Counted from the stretch's first letter, positions 3,579 through 50,175 are shown. The stretch: 64,000 bases of DNA from Candidatus Avelusimicrobium vaccinum (GCA_902794895.1 CADBIY010000005.1:1-64000); one strand, 5' to 3'. Notes: a model not told the origin generated them from the sequence alone. A program made the numbers and translations.

Positions 3579-4250
3579 ATGGCAGAAATTATTCGTAAAA
3601 CAACAAGTTCACATGAAAAAAATCAAGTAGGATTTGTACGCACTTATTACGTGAACGGCAAAGAAGTTTATCAGGAAACGTTGAATAAAAATTTAGATAT
3701 TGAAAACCATTCCGGTGCGCTTCCTGACGGAACAGTTAAAGAATTTTTTGAAAACGGTAAAATTTATTTTGAATGCCAAGTAAAAAACGGTTTGCGTAAC
3801 GGATTATGCAAAATTTATTTTGATAACGGTAAAGTAAGTATTGAAAAATTTTATGAAAACGGCTTGTTACAGGGAAAAGCACGCGTCTTTCATCCAACCG
3901 GGAAATTATATAAAGAATTTTCGTATGTAGATGACGTACAAGACGGAAAGCAAATTAAATATTATCCGGACGGCAAGGTATTGGAAACGGCTGAATTTCG
4001 CAAAGGATATTTAAACGGGGTATGCAAAGTTTACACCCCCGACGGAGATTTACGTTCCGAATGCAACTACAAAAATGACAAATTGGTAGGTGATAAAATT
4101 ATTTATCATCCCAACGGAACTATCGCCTTAATTTCCCCCCACAAAGACGGAAAACCGAACGGAGTCACCAAAAAATTCAGCGACACCGGAGACTTAATGG
4201 AAGAATGGTTTTTTGAAGATGGAATCTTAACCTTAAAAAAAGCAAGATAG
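3579..4250 (+). CDS. MORN-variant (YwqK-like) repeat protein
   Basis: Repeated Y/F-x-NGK/DGK units (YYVNGKEVY, FENGKIYFE, YFDNGKVS, YYPDGKVL, YHPNGTI). The ATG at 3579 is preceded by AAAGGAG. The track's upstream extension overlaps the previous gene. Confidence 0.7.
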   Translation: MAEIIRKTTSSHEKNQVGFVRTYYVNGKEVYQETLNKNLDIENHSGALPDGTVKEFFENGKIYFECQVKNGLRNGLCKIYFDNGKVSIEKFYENGLLQGKARVFHPTGKLYKEFSYVDDVQDGKQIKYYPDGKVLETAEFRKGYLNGVCKVYTPDGDLRSECNYKNDKLVGDKIIYHPNGTIALISPHKDGKPNGVTKKFSDTGDLMEEWFFEDGILTLKKAR

Positions 4251-4269: not shown

Positions 4270-4568
4270 CCCCCCGCAAAGCGGGGGGTTCTCACAATAC
4301 GGGTATAAAGCCCTTGCCTACCAACCTAGGGCTTTGCTCCTTCCTAACGACCTATCACACTCGACTTTGCACACTTTCTTCTTGCTATTTTTAAACAAAG
4401 CGTCATTCCAAACTTGATTTGGAATCTTCCGCTTTTGTCGTTGCTGTTTCGTAACTACCACCACATTCGTCGAAGATCCTGAATCAAGTTCAGGATGACT
4501 TGATGATTTATTTTAATCGCTTAAATCTTAACGGAACCCCAGCCTAGCTGGGGGTTTTCACAATACAC
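4270..4568 (+). repeat. Intergenic structured repeat, copy A (core 4402-4499)
   Basis: Shares a near-identical ~140-nt block with 5361-5500 and 26800-26945. Bounded by the GC hairpin CCCCCCGCAAAGCGGGGGG + TTCTCACAATAC on the left and CCCCAGCCTAGCTGGGG + GTTTTCACAATAC on the right. Confidence 0.85.
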
Positions 4569-4574
4569 AAAAAA

Positions 4575-4595
4575 CCCTCCGTATGAAACGGAGGG
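4575..4595. terminator. Bidirectional intrinsic terminator hairpin downstream of the pilin-like gene
   Basis: AAAAAA-CCCTCCG-TATGAAA-CGGAGGG-TTTTT. Confidence 0.7.
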
Positions 4596-4623
4596 TTTTT
4601 AATTGCTTGACCACACCATCCCA

Positions 4624-5121
4624 TTAAAAAGGATACCAAGTTGTACCGCCTTCCACTCTTGTCTGCGGCGAATTGGTATCGGCTCCCACTTTCGTACAGA
4701 CCGCTGCTGATTGAAAAGAATAACAATATCTTCTTCCATCATCGGTGAAAACCAATGTATAGTCTCCAAACGGACTATTTCTGCGATACGCCGAAACATA
4801 ATTTGCGTTCCACATCATGCCATTGTAAATAACCCAATTGTTCGTTGCAAAGGAACTAGCGTGTCCTGTAGCAGAAGTACCATCCTCTGTAATAAAATCT
4901 AACGACAATTCTTCCCAATTATAATCACTGCGCTCCTCCATCTTTGCTATTTGAGCAGCTTTCATAAGACTTTGCAGCATACCCCAAGCTTCCGCTTGGC
5001 GGCTTTTTTCTACCGCTTTTTGATATTGCGGAAGTGCTACGCTCGCTAAAATACCGATAATTAACACCACTACAAGCAATTCTATCAAGGTAAAACCGCT
5101 TAAATTTTGATTTGTTTTCAT
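4624..5121 (-). CDS. Prepilin-type N-terminal cleavage/methylation domain protein (type IV pilin / pseudopilin-like)
   Basis: N-terminus MKTNQNLSG|[24 protein letters not shown] carries the G/FTLIE prepilin peptidase motif with Glu at +5. SD AAAGGAGGG upstream. Confidence 0.85.
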
Positions 5122-5158
5122 AGGATGTATCCCTCCTTTTATATAACCTATAAATCAA

Positions 5159-5187
5159 AATTTATCAAAAAAAAAAAACCCAGTCAA
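5159..5187 (-). promoter_or_regulatory. Candidate sigma70-type promoter of the pilin-like gene, with a T12 homopolymer in the spacer
   Basis: Minus strand reads TTGACT-GGG-T12-GA-TAAATT: -35 at 5182-5187, a 17-nt spacer, -10 at 5159-5164. The A12 run on the plus strand is 5167-5178. Confidence 0.45.
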
Positions 5188-5224
5188 GCCCTTTTTAAAC
5201 AAATCCGCTTTACACAAAAAACAT

Positions 5225-5563
5225 CCCCCTGCAAAGCAGAGGTTTTTTCACAATACGGGTAAAACCGAAGCAAAGCGGAGTCCTGAAAATGTCTTTATTT
5301 TCCCCTAAGGGCTTAGACCCTTCTCAACGACCTGCCACGCTCAACTTCCCATGCTTGCTTCTTGCTGTTTTTAAACAAAGCGTCATTCCAAACTTGATTT
5401 GGAATCTTCCGCTTTTGCTGTTACTGTTTCGTAACTACCACAACATACGCGTTGAAGATCCTGAATCAAGTTCAGGATGACTTTATAATTTATCTTAACA
5501 ACCTGTTTATCGGTAGAACCTTAACGGAACCCCTACGCCTGGCTGGAGGGTTTCCCATACAAA
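5225..5563 (+). repeat. Intergenic structured repeat, copy B (core 5382-5481)
   Basis: Same orientation and architecture as copy A: left hairpin + TTTTTTCACAATACGGGTA, conserved core, right CTTAACGGAACCCC...GGGTTTCCCATAC. About 90% identity to copy A across the core block, estimated by eye. Confidence 0.85.
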
Positions 5564-5564
5564 C

Positions 5565-5595
5565 AAAAAGGGACCTCACAAAAGGTCCCTTTTTT
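5565..5595. terminator. Bidirectional intrinsic terminator
   Basis: AAAAA-GGGACCT-CACAAA-AGGTCCC-TTTTTT, immediately 3' of the minus-strand gene ending at 5613. Confidence 0.7.
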
Positions 5596-5612
5596 ATAAC
5601 AGCAACTTAAAT

Positions 5613-5879
5613 TTATTCTTCGTAATAATCACGCACAAAGAACACGATATAAGCCAGCCAGGTTCCTCCAAAAAATAACGAAAAACAGTACGAGAACCAC
5701 CATATTTTATCCAACGGGTTATAATCGGTTAATAAAGAATCCAGTAACAGAATACTTAAAATATAGGTAAGATAGATCCATATAATAGCCACAACGGCTT
5801 TCAATGCCGTATCTAATGTTCCCAAAATAATTCCTTTTTCTTGAAAAGGCTTAGCCAGAAATGTAATCAATCTTTGCAT
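5613..5879 (-). CDS. Small integral membrane protein, hypothetical
   Basis: 88-aa ORF with two or three hydrophobic spans (AVVAIIWIYLTYILSILLL, WWFSYCFSLFFGGTWLAYIVFFV). Confidence 0.55.
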   Translation of the reverse strand: MQRLITFLAKPFQEKGIILGTLDTALKAVVAIIWIYLTYILSILLLDSLLTDYNPLDKIWWFSYCFSLFFGGTWLAYIVFFVRDYYEE

Positions 5880-5902
5880 AGTATTTACGCTCCTCTCATG
5901 TA

Positions 5903-6634
5903 CTAATTAAGCGGGGCCGGAATCGGTGTGGCCGTTTCATCCGGGGTAATTCCTAATTCTTCATTTAATAAATCATCCTCATTGTCTGCAGATGACAATA
6001 ACGGATCATGCGTAAGCCCCGGCTCCTCTGTGGAGGTGGTTGTTACTACCGGTTGAGCAGGCTCTGCTTGCGGAGTTGCCGGCACAGAAGATTTCATGAT
6101 ACGATTGGGTTTATGCTGCCGCGCTTTCAACCCACGTACCTGTTGTTCCTGTGTTAAAGAAGTAGTGGTTGCAGTTTCTTTCGTCGGCTGGGTTAAGCGT
6201 GCAGGGGCTCTTTCCGTAACGGTTTTCTTGACCGATTCCGGATCCGTCATCTGCCGTTGCGCTTCCAATTCCTTTAAATAGGCTTGTTCTAAAGCGGCAC
6301 GTTCCTGTTCACTTAATGTATCATTTTTAAATGTCGGAAAACGTTGAGATCCCACATACTGGTGCTGGATGGACATTTTAGCATCTTTAAAATAACCGTT
6401 CTTAGCGGTAGGTGTTTGGACGGTTTCCGGCTGAGGTTCTTTAGAATATACTCCCGAATAAACCAGTTCCGGACCGGACACGGTTGCAGCCACGGAATCT
6501 TCTTCTGTCAAGCAATAAGTTACACGTTGGCGGGTAGTTGCTTTTTGGTGGCTATCTACCCGGGTTTCACAAGTGGAAGCAGCATAGGAGACCCCCGCTG
6601 CTATAAGAAATAAAAATGTAAGGATATTTTTCAT
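5903..6634 (-). CDS. Exported hypothetical protein
   Basis: 243-aa ORF with signal-like MKNILTFLFLIAAGVSYA and an SD GGAG upstream. T/Q/P/E-rich C-terminal half. No family recognised. Confidence 0.6.
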   Translation of the reverse strand: MKNILTFLFLIAAGVSYAASTCETRVDSHQKATTRQRVTYCLTEEDSVAATVSGPELVYSGVYSKEPQPETVQTPTAKNGYFKDAKMSIQHQYVGSQRFPTFKNDTLSEQERAALEQAYLKELEAQRQMTDPESVKKTVTERAPARLTQPTKETATTTSLTQEQQVRGLKARQHKPNRIMKSSVPATPQAEPAQPVVTTTSTEEPGLTHDPLLSSADNEDDLLNEELGITPDETATPIPAPLN

Positions 6635-25350: not shown

Positions 25351-26712
25351 ATGCCTAGTGTTACCAAAAACCCATTTAAAGATAAAAAACTTTCTGCTTT
25401 GCTGATTAAGTTTTCCGCACCGGCCGTAGCCGGTATGTTTGTCAACGCGTTATACAATATTATTTCCCGTATCTATGTAGGGCAGGATGTGGGAGCCGAC
25501 GGGTTAGCCGGCATTACTATTTTATTTCCGCTGGGAATGATTTACATGGGTTTTAGCGCACTAATCGGGGTAGGCAGCAATGCCCTGTTTTCCATCCGGC
25601 TCGGCGAAAAAAGAACCCTGGAAGCACACCGTATTTTGGGAAACGGGTTTGTGATGCTTTCGTTAGTTTCCACGGCACTTACGCTGCTTGCTTATTTATT
25701 TTTAGATCCTTTTCTCTCGCTCCTAGGGGCCGATCCGCAAATTCTTCCCTATGCAAAAGATTATGCCTCTGTTGTATTGCCCGGATATATGTTATTTGGT
25801 ATCGGAGCCGGCATGAACCATTTTATCCGCTCCTCCGGTCGCCCCAAAACAGCGATGGCAACCCAATTTATCGGGGCCTTTATCAACCTTGCACTCGGCC
25901 CCGTTTTTATTTTTGGGTTGCATTGGGGAATCCGCGGAGCGGCGGCAGCCACTGTCTGCGGGCAGTTAGTTTCCTTTGCGTGGGTCATGTTATTCTTTAC
26001 CAGTAAACGCAGTTTTTACCGGTTGCGCCTTAAATATTGTGCACTTAAAAAACATATTGTTTGGGGTAGCATGGCCATTGGATTTTCCCAATTTGCTTTT
26101 CAACTGGCTTCCAGTTTTTTAAATGTGATTCTCAACCATGCTTTATTACGTTATGGCGGGAATTTGGCTATTTCAGCAGTCGGGATTGCGGTAAGCGTAA
26201 ATACCTTGATTGTGATGCCGCTTTTTGGCATTTCCCAGGGGGCACAGCCGTTAATCGGCTATAATTACGGGGCCCGGAAATTTTCTACCGCCATTCATAC
26301 GCTTAAAATGGCTATACGTTGGGGAACGGTCATTACCACCGTCGGATTTGTATTCATTGAACTTTTTGCCGTCCAAGTGGCTTCCGTTTTTAATGCCCAG
26401 GATACGGCTTTAATTACCCTATCGGCCCGGGTACTGCGGATTTTTAATATTTTATTACCGATTATCGCTTTACAAGTAATGGCAACCAGTTTCTTCCAAG
26501 CCATTAACCAACCTTTAAAAGCGGCTTTTTTGAGTTTATCCCGCCAAGTATTATTGGTTTTACCCTTGGTCCTTATTTTGCCTCTATTTTTGGGATTAGA
26601 CGGCGTATTTTTAGCCCCGGTCGTGGCGGATGCCATTTCCACGATAATAGCGGTATACCTCTTGCAACGTTTTTTTGTGCAACACGGTCAAACGCTTTGG
26701 TTCAAAAAATAG
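25351..26712 (+). CDS. MATE family efflux transporter
   Basis: 453 aa, ~12 hydrophobic spans, and an N-terminal KFSAPAVAGMFVNALYNIISRIYVGQ segment typical of MATE. Confidence 0.85.
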   Translation: MPSVTKNPFKDKKLSALLIKFSAPAVAGMFVNALYNIISRIYVGQDVGADGLAGITILFPLGMIYMGFSALIGVGSNALFSIRLGEKRTLEAHRILGNGFVMLSLVSTALTLLAYLFLDPFLSLLGADPQILPYAKDYASVVLPGYMLFGIGAGMNHFIRSSGRPKTAMATQFIGAFINLALGPVFIFGLHWGIRGAAAATVCGQLVSFAWVMLFFTSKRSFYRLRLKYCALKKHIVWGSMAIGFSQFAFQLASSFLNVILNHALLRYGGNLAISAVGIAVSVNTLIVMPLFGISQGAQPLIGYNYGARKFSTAIHTLKMAIRWGTVITTVGFVFIELFAVQVASVFNAQDTALITLSARVLRIFNILLPIIALQVMATSFFQAINQPLKAAFLSLSRQVLLVLPLVLILPLFLGLDGVFLAPVVADAISTIIAVYLLQRFFVQHGQTLWFKK

Positions 26713-26985
26713 ACATCCTCTGCCTACTAGCCTAGGACTTAATCCCTTCTTAACTGCCTGCCACACGCGACTTCCCACATTTTGTGCTTGCTGTTTTGCT
26801 GTTTTGCTGTTTTGCTGTTTTTACACAAATCATCATTCCAAACTTGATTTGGAATCTTCCGCTTTTGCCGTTGCTGTTTCATAACAACCACAACATCCGT
26901 TGAAGATCCTGAATCAAGTTCAGGATGACTTTATGATTTATCTTAACGGCCCCCCCGGCCCAACGCAATGTTTTCTCACAGAATA
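26713..26985 (+). repeat. Intergenic structured repeat, copy C (core 26832-26929), with a TTGCTGTT x4 expansion at 26788-26819
   Basis: Same core and orientation as copies A and B. The right end reads CTTAACGGCCCCCCCGGCC...TTTTCTCACAGAATAA. Lies between convergent MATE and nadB. Confidence 0.85.
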
Positions 26986-27019
26986 AAAGACGGCCGAACG
27001 TCTGTCCGGCCGTCTTTTT
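26985..27019. terminator. Bidirectional terminator 3' of nadB
   Basis: AAAA-GACGGCCG-(loop)-CGGCCGTC-TTTTT. Confidence 0.65.
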
Positions 27020-29087: not shown

Positions 29088-29471
29088 CTAAACTGTAATC
29101 GTATATTTTCCCCCATGACGCACCGCCGTTACATTAACGTCATATTTGTTGCTTTCATCTTTGGTACTATTTAAAGTTACTTCAAAATATTTCGTTCTAA
29201 CACAGTAATCACTCGCCGGAGTGCATGCTTTTTGGTGGGCAAAAGTAGTTTCTAAATCGGTCAACTTAGGTCTCATGACATCTATATGTTCAGCATGATA
29301 CCGTTCTGCTGCTTCCATCAATGTGTGCGCAGCCACCAATCCTTCCGTAAAATTACTACGTTCCGCCGCCTTACGGTAGGATCCGGCCGCAATTCCCATC
29401 AAAATAGCAATAATAACAACTACCGTCATTAATTCGGTAAGAGTAAAACCTTTTTGATTTTTTATATTCAT
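29088..29471 (-). CDS. Prepilin-type N-terminal cleavage/methylation domain protein
   Basis: MNIKNQKG|FTLTELMTVVVIIAILMGIAAGSY. Confidence 0.85.
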   Translation of the reverse strand: MNIKNQKGFTLTELMTVVVIIAILMGIAAGSYRKAAERSNFTEGLVAAHTLMEAAERYHAEHIDVMRPKLTDLETTFAHQKACTPASDYCVRTKYFEVTLNSTKDESNKYDVNVTAVRHGGKYTITV

Positions 29472-29590
29472 AATAACCCCTTGAAAACCAGATATATTTA
29501 TTATAACCTTTTTTCTTTTCCTTGCAAGCCTTTTTAAATTTATTTGAAAAATTTAATAAAAACCGATATACTAACGATAAAGGAGATTAT

Positions 29591-30052
29591 ATGACCAAAT
29601 ACAATGGATTTACTTTAATTGAATTGTTGGCTGTTGTGTTAATTATTGCAATTTTAACTTCTATCGCCATGCCACAATACCGTCGTTCTATCCGCCGGGC
29701 TGAAGCCGTGGAAGCCATGATCAATTTGCGCACTGTTTATGATGCCGCCAAACGCTACAAAGCCGCCACCTCCGCTCCGGCCCTGCAACTGCATGGTTTA
29801 GATGTGGAGTTTTTTGATGTGTCAACGTCAGAGTCTTCTTTTCTCATGAATAAATTTATTTATTCTTTTGAAACAAACGGTATTAAATCCTGCCGGGCCA
29901 ATAACGGTGGTTTTTGTCTGCATTTTTATTACAAACACAATTCCTTCGGAAAAGACGCTTTAATCTGCGAAGTACAGGATGGCAGTAAAACCGGCCAGCA
30001 AATATGCGAATCCTTAAGCGGAAAGACAGAAACTCCTTATCTGATTGAATAA
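29591..30052 (+). CDS. Prepilin-type N-terminal cleavage/methylation domain protein
   Basis: MTKYNG|FTLIELLAVVLIIAILTSIAMPQY, with SD AAAGGAGA before the ATG at 29591. Divergent from the previous pilin-like gene. Confidence 0.85.
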   Translation: MTKYNGFTLIELLAVVLIIAILTSIAMPQYRRSIRRAEAVEAMINLRTVYDAAKRYKAATSAPALQLHGLDVEFFDVSTSESSFLMNKFIYSFETNGIKSCRANNGGFCLHFYYKHNSFGKDALICEVQDGSKTGQQICESLSGKTETPYLIE

Positions 30053-39615: not shown

Positions 39616-39688
39616 GGGCGTGTAGCTCAGCTGGGAGAGCGCCTCGTTCGCAACGAGGAGGTCGTCGGTTCGATCCCGATCACGTCCA
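39616..39688 (+). tRNA. tRNA-Ala (anticodon CGC)
   Basis: Hand-folded: GGGCGTG TA GCTC AGCTGGGA GAGC G CCTCG TTCGCAA CGAGG AGGTC GTCGG TTCGATC CCGAT CACGTCC A. The G3:U70 alanine identity pair is present. CCA is not encoded. Confidence 0.9.
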
Positions 39689-40040
39689 AAATTTAGAAAC
39701 CCTACACAAGTAGGGTTTTTTAATTTTATGCTTGAGCGAACCGAAAGACCGACGAAGTTGCATTCACGAGGTGCGTTTCGCTTCCGAAGTGAAGTAACGA
39801 GGAGGTTGTTGTCGCCGTCTGCAAGACTCCCGATCACGTCCAAAATTTAGAAACCCTACACAAGTAGGGTTTTTTAATTTTAGTCTAAGCATACAGAAAG
39901 ACCAACGAAGTTGCGAACCCGGAGGCGCGGTTGTTCTGCCTGCGAAGTGAAGCAACGAGGAGGGCTCTCGCCCGTCCGGCAAGGACTCCCGATCACGTCC
40001 AAAATTTAAAAGTCCTGCGTAAAGCGGGGCTTTTTTATTT
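39674..40040 (+). repeat. tRNA-linked tandem repeat: the 3' end of tRNA-Ala plus its terminator is repeated three times (period 154 and 159 nt)
   Basis: The 55-nt unit TCCCGATCACGTCCAAAATTTAGAAACCCTACACAAGTAGGGTTTTTTAATTTTA occurs at 39674-39728 and identically at 39828-39882. A third copy starts at 39987 with a diverged terminator. The ~100-nt spacers are related to each other and retain AACGAGGAGG from the tRNA anticodon-stem region. Confidence 0.85.
39698..39721 (+). terminator. Intrinsic terminator directly after tRNA-Ala
   Basis: AACCCTAC-ACAA-GTAGGGTT-TTTT. Confidence 0.75.
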
Positions 40041-40089
40041 TCTTCTAAAAAGATAAAATAAATATATATCTATTTTTACGAGGACTTCT

Positions 40090-49131: not shown

Positions 49132-50175
49132 ATGAGTAATGTATCAATGAAAGCCATGTTGGAAGCCGGTGTGCACTTTGGCCACCAAACTTCCCGCTGG
49201 AATCCGAAAATGGGACGTTTTATCTTTGGAGAAAGAAACGGCGTCCATATCTTAGACTTACAAAAAACCGCTAAAGAACTTAAAAAAGCCTGCGCTTTTA
49301 TTAAAGAAGAAAGCAAAAAAGGTGCAAAATTTTTGTTCGTCGGTACTAAAAAGCAAGCCCAAGAAGCCATCCAAGCCGAAGCAGCCCGCTGCGGTGCTTA
49401 TTGCATTCACGAAAAATGGCTCGGTGGCACGTTAACTAACTTCCAAACCGTTAAAAAATCCGTAGAACGGATGAACGAATTGGAAAAATGGGAAGCCTCC
49501 GGCGTTTTTAAAGCAATTTCTAAAAAAGAAGCCAGCCGCTTAACCAAAGAACTCGTGCGCTTACAAAAATTACTGGGTGGCATCCGCGATATGAAAGTAC
49601 TCCCGGATGTGGTCTTTGTCATTGACCCGGTAGATACTGCCGGTGCCGTGCGCGAATCTTACACGTTAGGAATCCCGGTTGTTGCGGTTTGTGATACCAA
49701 TGCCGACCCCGATATGATCACCGTCCCGGTTCCCGGTAACGACGATGCAGCCCGCTCTATCAAATTATTCTGCGCTGCAATTGCAGATTCTATCTTAGAA
49801 GGGCGCGAAGAAGCCAACCCGGCTCCTGCCGCCACGGAAGATAAACCGGCTGAAAACCCGGTAATGGCTCAAGCCTTTGAATCGGCTATGCTCGCCGCTG
49901 AAAAAGAAGAAGCCGCTCAGGAAGAAACGGTAGCCGAAAAAGAAGTAGTAGCGGAAGAAGCCCCGGTAGAAGAAGTACAACCCGCAGAAGAAAAACCGGC
50001 TCCGGCTGAAGAAGCGGAAGAAAAACCGGCTAAAAAAACTGCCGCTAAAAAAACAACCGCTAAAAAAACCACTACTAAAAAAACGACGACTGCTAAAAAA
50101 ACAACCGCTAAAAAAGCCACTGCCAAAACAAAAAAAGCGGAAGTAAAAGAAGAAGCCGCCGAAGAAGCAAAATAA
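49132..50175 (+). CDS. rpsB: 30S ribosomal protein S2 with a ~120-aa low-complexity C-terminal extension
   Basis: Conserved core [19 protein letters not shown]...; after ~residue 225 comes an acidic E/A/P segment and then KKT(T)A repeats. Confidence 0.9.

Follow-up and report, generated by a model that had tools for sequence, protein, structure and literature searches.

A prepilin-type gene flanked by two copies of a dispersed hairpin repeat in a replaceable slot of Candidatus Avelusimicrobium vaccinum

Within a 64,000-nucleotide (nt) stretch of DNA from Candidatus Avelusimicrobium vaccinum (GCA_902794895.1 CADBIY010000005.1:1-64000), analyzed whole and referred to here as the window, a gene for a prepilin-type (type IV pilin-like) protein lies between two direct copies, A and B, of a ~300-nt structured repeat. 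We show that this gene occupies a replaceable slot between conserved genes for a MORN-repeat protein and an 88-amino-acid (aa) membrane protein, which holds this pilin together with A and B, another pilin without repeats, or no pilin at all. The repeat is a non-coding, high-copy dispersed element of this cattle-gut Elusimicrobiaceae species. We infer that the slot most likely turns over by homologous recombination in its conserved flanks, and that the two repeat copies are probably passengers.

Copies A (4270-4566) and B (5227-5563) are homologous and both lie on the plus strand (nhmmer E values of 2e-78 and 6e-76), and the 660 nt between them contain a single open reading frame (ORF), 4624-5121 on the minus strand. 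The nhmmer matches, the ORF with its PF07963 domain and the predicted expression signals bear out the arrangement described in an earlier note on this DNA, namely same-orientation repeats of ~300 bp around a ~650-bp module in which the pilin gene has its own terminator and promoter. The coordinates of all features are collected in Table 1.

Variation at this locus was analyzed in Logan contigs from 12 metagenome runs, 10 of which were informative; the window was found in bovine, sheep and other gut metagenomes, and such contigs show presence and hide rare variants. Runs, related loci and homologous proteins are designated by codes of the type X1, L003 and P0002, respectively. In eight runs (X1, X2, X3, X5-X9) the pilin gene was recovered at the depth of its flanks. 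In X10, a 21-kb contig with a depth of 34 joins position 4272 to 5613 via 38 unrelated nt that form a simple terminator; this empty allele thus skips 4273-5612 (1340 nt), and both repeat copies are gone. Pilin depth was 0 in both X10 and X11, and the contigs of X11 stop at the same two positions. The presence/absence polymorphism that the earlier note had suggested looking for at 4569-5224 therefore exists, but the variable unit is the larger segment 4273-5612, which includes both repeats.

The slot also differs between species. The closest sister species (L003, with a MORN-repeat protein 92% identical in aa sequence) displays the same gene order, with a pilin that is only 43% identical and plain spacers of 120-130 nt that carry no repeat, indicating that the slot varies without repeats. 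In L064 (MORN protein 93% identical) the flanking genes are 77 nt apart around one terminator and there is no pilin; L062 likewise has no pilin in the slot, while remoter relatives often carry some pilin gene after the MORN gene. Pilins at least 87% identical to that of the window were only ever found in this one slot.

How the block moves is best seen in L189, whose slot contains copy A and a pilin 87% identical to that of the window. The HI0933-like gene and the MORN gene of L189 are 68.5% and 81% identical to those of the window, respectively, but identity rises to 96-99% at approximately position 4200, which lies 50 nt short of the MORN stop codon, and remains at that level across the spacer, copy A and the pilin terminator; the pilin gene itself is 90-93% identical and internally mosaic. 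Since the block is shared despite flanks of 68-81% identity, it has been exchanged between otherwise distant lineages, and since high identity starts ~70 nt to the left of the element, inside the MORN gene, this points to a homologous crossover and not to a cut-and-paste event at the element end. On the other side of the slot, six runs (X2, X3, X5-X8) match the window perfectly as far as 5615 and differ from it by 4-6% beginning at 5616, and this right-flank divergence places another recurrent crossover zone where the 88-aa gene has its stop codon. Strains that are otherwise identical across the block carry either of two alleles of this gene (5616-5910); the alleles differ by 4-6%, and this indicates a mosaic population structure at the locus.

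These observations are consistent with a mechanism in which, after DNA transfer, homologous recombination in the conserved flanks would exchange the contents of the slot, with crossovers at about 4200 (3' end of the MORN gene) and about 5613 (stop codon of the neighbor). Copies A and B would have arisen when the dispersed repeat inserted independently into the two terminator-rich spacers that adjoin the pilin gene, and would now travel along as passengers. Their longest identical run, of 50 nt, could allow RecA-mediated deletion, yet this would not be the source of the variation seen.

Several points weigh against this interpretation. On the left, the missing segment begins exactly where A has its outer end (4272/4273, within the left-edge hairpin at 4270-4300), and the right breakpoint at 5613 is located just ~49 nt (terminator plus spacer, 5564-5612) beyond the outer end of B at 5563; such edges are exactly what a composite, repeat-bounded mobile unit predicts. 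In addition, two direct copies within 1 kb around one gene, given tens of copies per genome, would be unlikely if insertion were random. The L189 contig ends at window position 5147, so that the right breakpoint lies outside it. Rare variants are lost from Logan contigs, and low-frequency A x B recombinants or circles could thus go unseen, while both the copy number of the element and the neighborhood of all its copies are inferred from depth in mixed communities. Lastly, no transposase for the element was identified, and no transposase domain was detected among the tested ORFs of the window and of ~30 kb of a same-species contig.

A composite unit, in which A and B would be the arms of a compound transposon, comparable to MITE-bounded mobilization units, and a transposase acting in trans would move A-pilin-B in and out of the spacer between the MORN and 88-aa genes, was considered. 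Beyond an empty allele that lacks exactly A, the pilin and B, it is favored by a block 96-99% shared between lineages whose flanks are far less similar, by the ~45-nt terminal inverted repeats of the element cores, and by the 9-13-nt duplications that flank hairpin units in relatives. We nevertheless regard it as unlikely: the identity with L189 begins inside the MORN gene, the empty site carries an unrelated 38-nt filler with no recognizable target duplication, closely similar pilins are confined to one slot, and neither a transposase in the window nor a recurrent gene family at 157 hairpin loci was found.

Recombination between the two direct repeats, which the earlier note had expected to excise or duplicate exactly one promoter-pilin-terminator unit, does not describe the variation observed. 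The only deletion allele lacks both copies and has a 38-nt terminator in their stead, and neither the 980-nt joint nor the hybrid repeat that A x B recombination would leave was present in any of the 12 runs. Stretches of 50 identical nt are long enough for RecA (minimal processing segments), the two copies are in direct orientation, the locus is polymorphic, and hairpins are enriched near pilins at the family level. However, the sister species has a slot pilin without repeats, copy C and five element-free pilins in 30 kb speak against an obligatory link, and there is no recombinase among the window ORFs tested. That A x B recombination drives the turnover, and that the element exists to shuffle pilin cassettes, is therefore very improbable. 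The idea that the element helps to exchange such cassettes holds insofar as the locus is polymorphic and the block moved between lineages; it does not hold for the repeats themselves, as A and B resemble each other no more than they resemble C, and the slot of the sister species has none. Three apparent joints (4600->5365, 5037->5456 and 5533->4984) have short sides of 27-36 nt that fit other copies or paralogues elsewhere, and were rejected as rearrangements of the locus; joints with a strand switch were likewise absent at the pilin locus in the runs examined.

A third copy of the repeat, C, is located at ~26712-26990 on the plus strand (nhmmer 26711-26951, E = 5e-71), and a profile built from the three copies revealed no fourth in the 64-kb window. 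A and B are 81% identical overall, 91% over a 135-nt core and 66-79% in the flanks. The core is 90-92% identical in all three pairs and the flanks 57-79%, and A is no nearer to B than either is to C. Within copy C, the left flank includes a tandem (TGCTGTTT)n tract (26780-26815) whose length varies between strains, being shorter in X10 by 16 nt, or two units. The core of copy A is a REPIN- or MITE-like unit (the latter for miniature inverted-repeat transposable element) with terminal inverted repeats of ~45 nt, and its two 24-nt hairpins, GTCATTCCAAACTTGATTTGGAATC and the reverse complement of GTCATCCTGAACTTGATTCAGGATC, are in inverted orientation. Beyond 5533, other copies of the repeat carry the same GC hairpin and a TTTTCACAA tail, as seen in loose contig ends.

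Core k-mer depth is 20-70x that of unique flanks in ten metagenomes, and many contigs of single-copy depth terminate in the core, which identifies it as a dispersed repeat with tens of copies per genome. For copy B, depth relative to single-copy sequence is ~8x in the left flank and 20-40x in the core. The exact core had no match in the species genomes of GTDB, a collection that does not include this species itself. Core ORFs show no frame conservation among copies, and a protein search with the 63-aa ORF of copy B matched only itself, so that mis-called ORFs revealed no further copies. A small minus-strand peptide (MTLCLK...) is open in A, B, C and L189, but it has no Shine-Dalgarno (SD) sequence and its frame differs from that of the in-frame leader insertions of relatives; it was not adopted, its reading frame showing too little divergence for a coding test.

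The repeat folds much better than its shuffles (z = -5.0 on the plus strand and -3.7 on the minus strand), which, together with a minus-strand terminator at each copy end (4288->4270, and 5242->5226 just upstream of the pilin promoter), could suggest that the repeats are small-RNA genes of one family, or that terminators and structured RNA form a module, cis-regulatory or insulating, that controls pilin expression. Indeed, copy A is 96-99% conserved in L189, above the adjoining coding sequence, and one G-C to G-T change in an end hairpin is tolerable only as minus-strand RNA. Recent transfer explains this conservation equally well, however, and no promoter is predicted for the element, the region is present in none of the RNA runs searched, and Rfam yielded only chance matches both at gathering thresholds and at E<=10, and hence no family. 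The same core also occurs inside ORFs and in unrelated contexts across phyla, and this explanation is quite unlikely in our view.

The core hairpins belong to a much wider set. A search of 1 Mb of relatives' DNA detected 64 hairpins, versus 9-17 in shuffles; they are 24-28 nt long, and the foot GTCA[TC] is present in all copies. Other Elusimicrobiaceae have the same architecture with different, mutually compensating stems (TCCCCGA, TTCCCGA, TGCTGAA, TCCCGGA and others). When only the feet were searched for in relatives, 16 doublets were recovered, 15 of them with perfect local hairpins of differing stems. A single long hairpin formed by the outer elements (H1:H3) was rejected as the conserved structure, since H1 and H3 are mostly non-complementary in relatives while each local hairpin is intact; what is conserved within doublets is thus the two local hairpins and a spacer stem.

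Over 120 metagenome contigs from numerous environments, with GC contents of 26-71%, contain the hairpin GATCCTGAAnnAArTTCAGGATGAC, 48 of 132 metagenome matches being inverted doublets, and it was also found on plasmids of Sphingomonadaceae, Sulfurovum and Treponema and on 37 viral contigs. Inverted doublets of the GTCATCCTGAACTTGTTTCAGGATC hairpin occur at 3990-4290 of L232 (Sphingomonas koreensis plasmid NZ_CP018821.1) and at metagenome and viral loci L069-L231; they are often nested in larger palindromes or located beside other GTCAT-foot hairpins, and are unannotated in the records examined. Full-text literature searches for the hairpin sequence or its typical mistranslations returned nothing relevant. 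No protein family recurs beside the hairpin at 157 metagenome and viral loci, and no linked transposase or insertion sequence with the same ends was found there. Flanking duplications are present at several hairpin units of relatives (AAAGGTTTTA twice in L235, GGGTTTACGC twice in L050, GGCTTT[G/A]CGC in L019, ~13 nt in L033), and insertions in L234 show a similar duplication of cleavage-site codons. No target duplication is recognizable at A, B or C, and none is consistent among the 48 metagenome doublets.

We asked whether the hairpins are tied to pilin genes, a link that the earlier note had suggested testing. In 1.06 Mb from 65 Elusimicrobiaceae genomes, a GTCAT hairpin lies at most 400 nt upstream of 11 of 64 pilin cleavage sites, versus 20 of 848 other gene starts (odds ratio 8.6, Fisher p = 2e-6); the loci are partly syntenic, with the cases in at least 9 different positions. 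Enrichment near prepilin genes is thus seen within this family, but outside it the hairpin lies beside a pilin motif in 0 of 132 cases, which rules out a general specificity for pilins. The DNA of this species that was compared consists of the window and about 30 kb of a 416-kb contig, assigned to the same species by a 99%-identical pilin (P0002); this 30-kb portion has five pilin-like genes and no copy of the element. By our own rough estimate (8 pilins, ~90 genes), the chance probability that two of three copies lie beside a pilin is near 0.08, and a tie between repeat and pilin is not demonstrable within this species. The 'flank-like fragments' of the element reported in the 3' region of the second pilin gene (29088-29471) could not be confirmed, as A and C reach only chance-level scores there; a B-specific segment gives one 36-nt match of 75% identity, inverted, with a score of 32 versus a shuffle maximum of 29.

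The association at the family level seems to stem from insertions within the 5' end of the pilin genes themselves. The sequence from an ATG with a preceding SD to the G/FTLIELL cleavage site includes one or two hairpin units in L019, L033, L050, L051 and L054, and likewise in the database proteins P0004, P0047, P0090, P0113 and P0117. The insertions remain in frame for 17-120 codons, and long leaders of this kind are present in approximately 6% of the 120 closest homologues. In-frame units were located at ~2757-2900 in L019, 9567-9732 in L033, 1033-1330 in L050, 12441-12660 in L054, 1501-1575 in L234, 1501-1560 in L235 and 1501-1650 in L236. Duplicated G-F-T codons, 9-13 nt in length, delimit them, and the predicted leaders measure 19-121 aa, versus the usual 2-10. 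The insertions may be tolerated because the leader is removed on maturation, and an insertion preference in or near the conserved pilin 5' end would account for the family-level link. On a broader and more tentative view, which we consider possible but doubtful, the GTCAT-foot hairpin could represent an undescribed pan-bacterial mobile family that, in Elusimicrobiaceae, would preferentially target the GG-TTT-AC codons of the prepilin cleavage site with a ~10-nt duplication and in frame, within a leader that prepilin peptidase removes; the insertions, together with a near-identical module of promoter, 5' untranslated region (UTR) and N-terminal codons shared by paralogues, would then provide portable homology through which pilin cassettes, A-pilin-B among them, are driven to turn over.

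Self-contained prepilin-type genes, equipped individually with a promoter, SD and terminator, are numerous and scattered, and the pilin-like gene of the slot belongs to this set. Its product starts with a class III signal, composed of a short basic leader, a G/F cleavage site, Glu at +5 and a hydrophobic helix (PF07963), and more than 3100 homologues were found. The SD, GGAGGG, lies at 5131-5136, and this promoter/SD architecture is common to paralogues and orthologues. Elusimicrobiaceae pilin-like genes (also in L005, L019, L020, L038, L056 and L236) have the promoter TTGACA-(T)11-13-GATAAAT, and a long homopolymer in the spacer between the -35 and -10 boxes is the classic layout for slipped-strand phase variation; the T tract showed no length variation in assembled contigs. 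Window positions 4980-5223, which cover the promoter, 5' UTR and first ~47 codons, are 91% identical to the corresponding region of the paralogue P0020 (9900-10142 in L190), whose protein is only 53% identical to the window pilin overall, and depth at 4992-5078 is 4-7x that of the flanks. The 91% identity of this 5' module despite 53% protein identity suggests, from sequence comparison, concerted evolution or gene conversion among paralogues.

As stated in the earlier note, the window holds three prepilin-type genes (4624-5121 and 29088-29471 on the minus strand, 29588-30052 on the plus strand), their neighbors are not pilus-assembly genes, and no recombinase gene is present; pilus-assembly, recombinase and transposase domains were all absent from the window ORFs tested. 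Type IV pilins are assembled into filaments by machinery of the PilB/C/D type. The rest of the window encodes housekeeping functions (lipopolysaccharide, fatty-acid, translation, cell wall), and an RNase III gene was found among its ORFs. Over its first 15,121 nt, the window matches an ENA metagenome scaffold at 100% identity. The nearest genomes, identified through a neighboring protein with a best match of 69% in aa sequence, are metagenome-assembled genomes of uncultured Elusimicrobiaceae from rumen or gut.

Table 1. Features of the pilin slot and of the repeat copies in the window.
Feature	Position	Strand	Remarks
Strain-variable block, A + pilin + B	4273..5612		Absent in X10, X11; present in X1, X2, X3, X5-X9
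Copy A, left-edge GC hairpin and TTCTCACAATAC ('DR' unit)	4270..4300		Minus-strand reading is an intrinsic terminator, 4288->4270
Copy A, left flank	4301..4385	+	Single-copy at >=90% identity in metagenomes
Copy A, core	4386..4529	+	Inverted REP-like hairpins 4402-4425 (+) and 4476-4499 (-), GTCAT feet; spacer ends also pair
Copy A, right-end DR hairpin (CCCCAGCCTAGCTGGGGGTTTTCACAATAC)	4537..4566		Pairing kept despite changes in L189
Pilin intrinsic terminator	4570..4600	-	13-bp stem, 4600-4570
Prepilin-type (type IV pilin-like) gene, 165 aa	4624..5121	-	MKTNQNLS/GFTLIELL...; PF07963 N_methyl, E = 7e-8
Predicted pilin promoter, TTGACT-17-TAAATT	5159..5187	-	12-nt T tract in spacer (A-run 5167-5178 on plus strand)
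Copy B, left-edge DR hairpin	5226..5256		Minus-strand terminator 5242->5226, just upstream of the pilin promoter
Copy B, left flank and core	5257..5523	+	Hairpins 5382-5405 (+) and 5458-5481 (-)
Copy B, right-end DR hairpin	5524..5563		Other genomic copies run on alike past 5533 (ACGCCTAGCGCGGGGTTTTCACAA)
Terminator of 88-aa membrane-protein gene and remaining spacer	5565..5612	-	Right breakpoint of the empty and divergent right-flank alleles, 5613-5616
Copy C	26712..26990	+	Between MatE transporter gene and L-aspartate-oxidase-like gene; no pilin adjoining

Two further repeat structures were noted elsewhere in the window. The 3' end of an rpsB-like ORF (49132-50175) contains 15/18-nt repeats at 50017-50142 that encode a Lys/Ala/Thr-rich tail. 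At 39616-40041, a tRNA-Ala(CGC) is followed by two tandem units of ~155 nt, each closing with the same 16 nt (CTCCCGATCACGTCCA) that end the tRNA, and each followed by a hairpin terminator, that of unit 1 being identical to the tRNA's own and that of unit 2 related to it; only the first is called as a tRNA. These units may be duplications similar to att sites, or small RNAs that bear a tRNA 3' end.

Pilin-like genes are scattered by the dozen in gut Elusimicrobia, and at least one of these resides in a slot that is filled, swapped or emptied. The slot varies between strains that are 98-99% identical in flanking DNA, and its contents are shared between species, a pattern of turnover expected for a surface structure under diversifying selection. 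The locus also serves as a warning, since direct repeats around a gene resemble a cassette system, but the population data indicate recombination in the flanking genes. If the leader insertions are what they appear to be, they would represent a new way for selfish DNA to hide within a gene with no harm to the mature product, and would explain the many odd 'long-leader' pilin predictions in metagenome protein sets.

By its anatomy, the element is of the REPIN/BIME or MITE type, and it lacks the GTAG head that is the criterion for repetitive extragenic palindromic (REP) sequences. REP sequences and REPINs are mobilized by RAYT transposases (Bertels & Rainey 2011, PMC3116915; PMC3337134). The element described here resembles them in its short imperfect palindromes (24-28 nt), its high copy number and mostly extragenic location, its inverted doublets, which together with their spacer fold into a long hairpin, the additional occurrence of singlets and arrays, and the absence of a transposase adjoining the copies. 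It differs in its foot, which is GTCAT where REPs have a GTAG head recognized by RAYT, and in its distribution, the hairpin being found across phyla and on viral contigs; REPIN families, in contrast, are reported to be specific to a lineage and to pass on by vertical inheritance. Furthermore, several insertions in relatives have 9-13-nt flanking duplications, while REPINs make none. A REP-RAYT system would also comprise a single-copy gene for a RAYT (a Y1 HUH transposase), flanked by REPs in the same genome; no transposase domain was detected in the 64 kb plus ~30 kb of this species that were covered.

Bacterial MITEs include the Correia elements of Neisseria and the ERIC/IRU sequences of enterobacteria. 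Like these, the repeat is a non-coding sequence of 100-300 nt with terminal inverted repeats, present in tens of copies that lie within or next to transcription units and can form long hairpins as RNA, and an RNase III gene is present in the window. Unlike in MITEs, however, no parent insertion sequence that shares its ends is known, target duplications are not uniform, and in this species the repeated unit is longer than its inverted-repeat core, with GC hairpins at both ends. Rickettsia palindromic elements insert in frame into protein genes, as do the hairpin units within the pilin ORF of L019, L033, L050, L054 and L234-L236, which are read as extra peptide; in this case, however, the insertions are in the cleaved-off leader, at the G-F-T codons, and not in the mature protein, and A, B and C are all intergenic.

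None of the defining features tested bears out the analogy to attC-bounded cassettes. A small unit with a single gene between structured repeats, present in some strains and absent from others, does recall integrons, but no integrase and no attI/attC architecture were found here. Integron cassettes consist of a promoterless ORF and one attC in same-direction arrays; here, a single unit has its own promoter and terminator with a repeat on both sides, these repeats are 300-nt copies of a dispersed element, and the variation does not arise by repeat-to-repeat recombination. An invertible or shufflon-type pilin switch differs as well, since A and B are direct and not inverted, no invertase was found, and the locus yielded no strand-switch joints. 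The allele groups of Pseudomonas aeruginosa pilA are replacement islands between conserved flanking genes, and here too a fixed slot between conserved genes holds very different pilins, or none, in close relatives, with mosaic flanking alleles that indicate homologous exchange. Contrary to pilA, the pilin of the window is not located beside assembly genes, belongs to a set of dozens of dispersed paralogues, and has a dispersed repeat on either side. Each ingredient of the locus thus has precedents, in REPIN/MITE-like repeats, in-frame palindromic elements, pilin replacement islands and repeat-bounded gene units.

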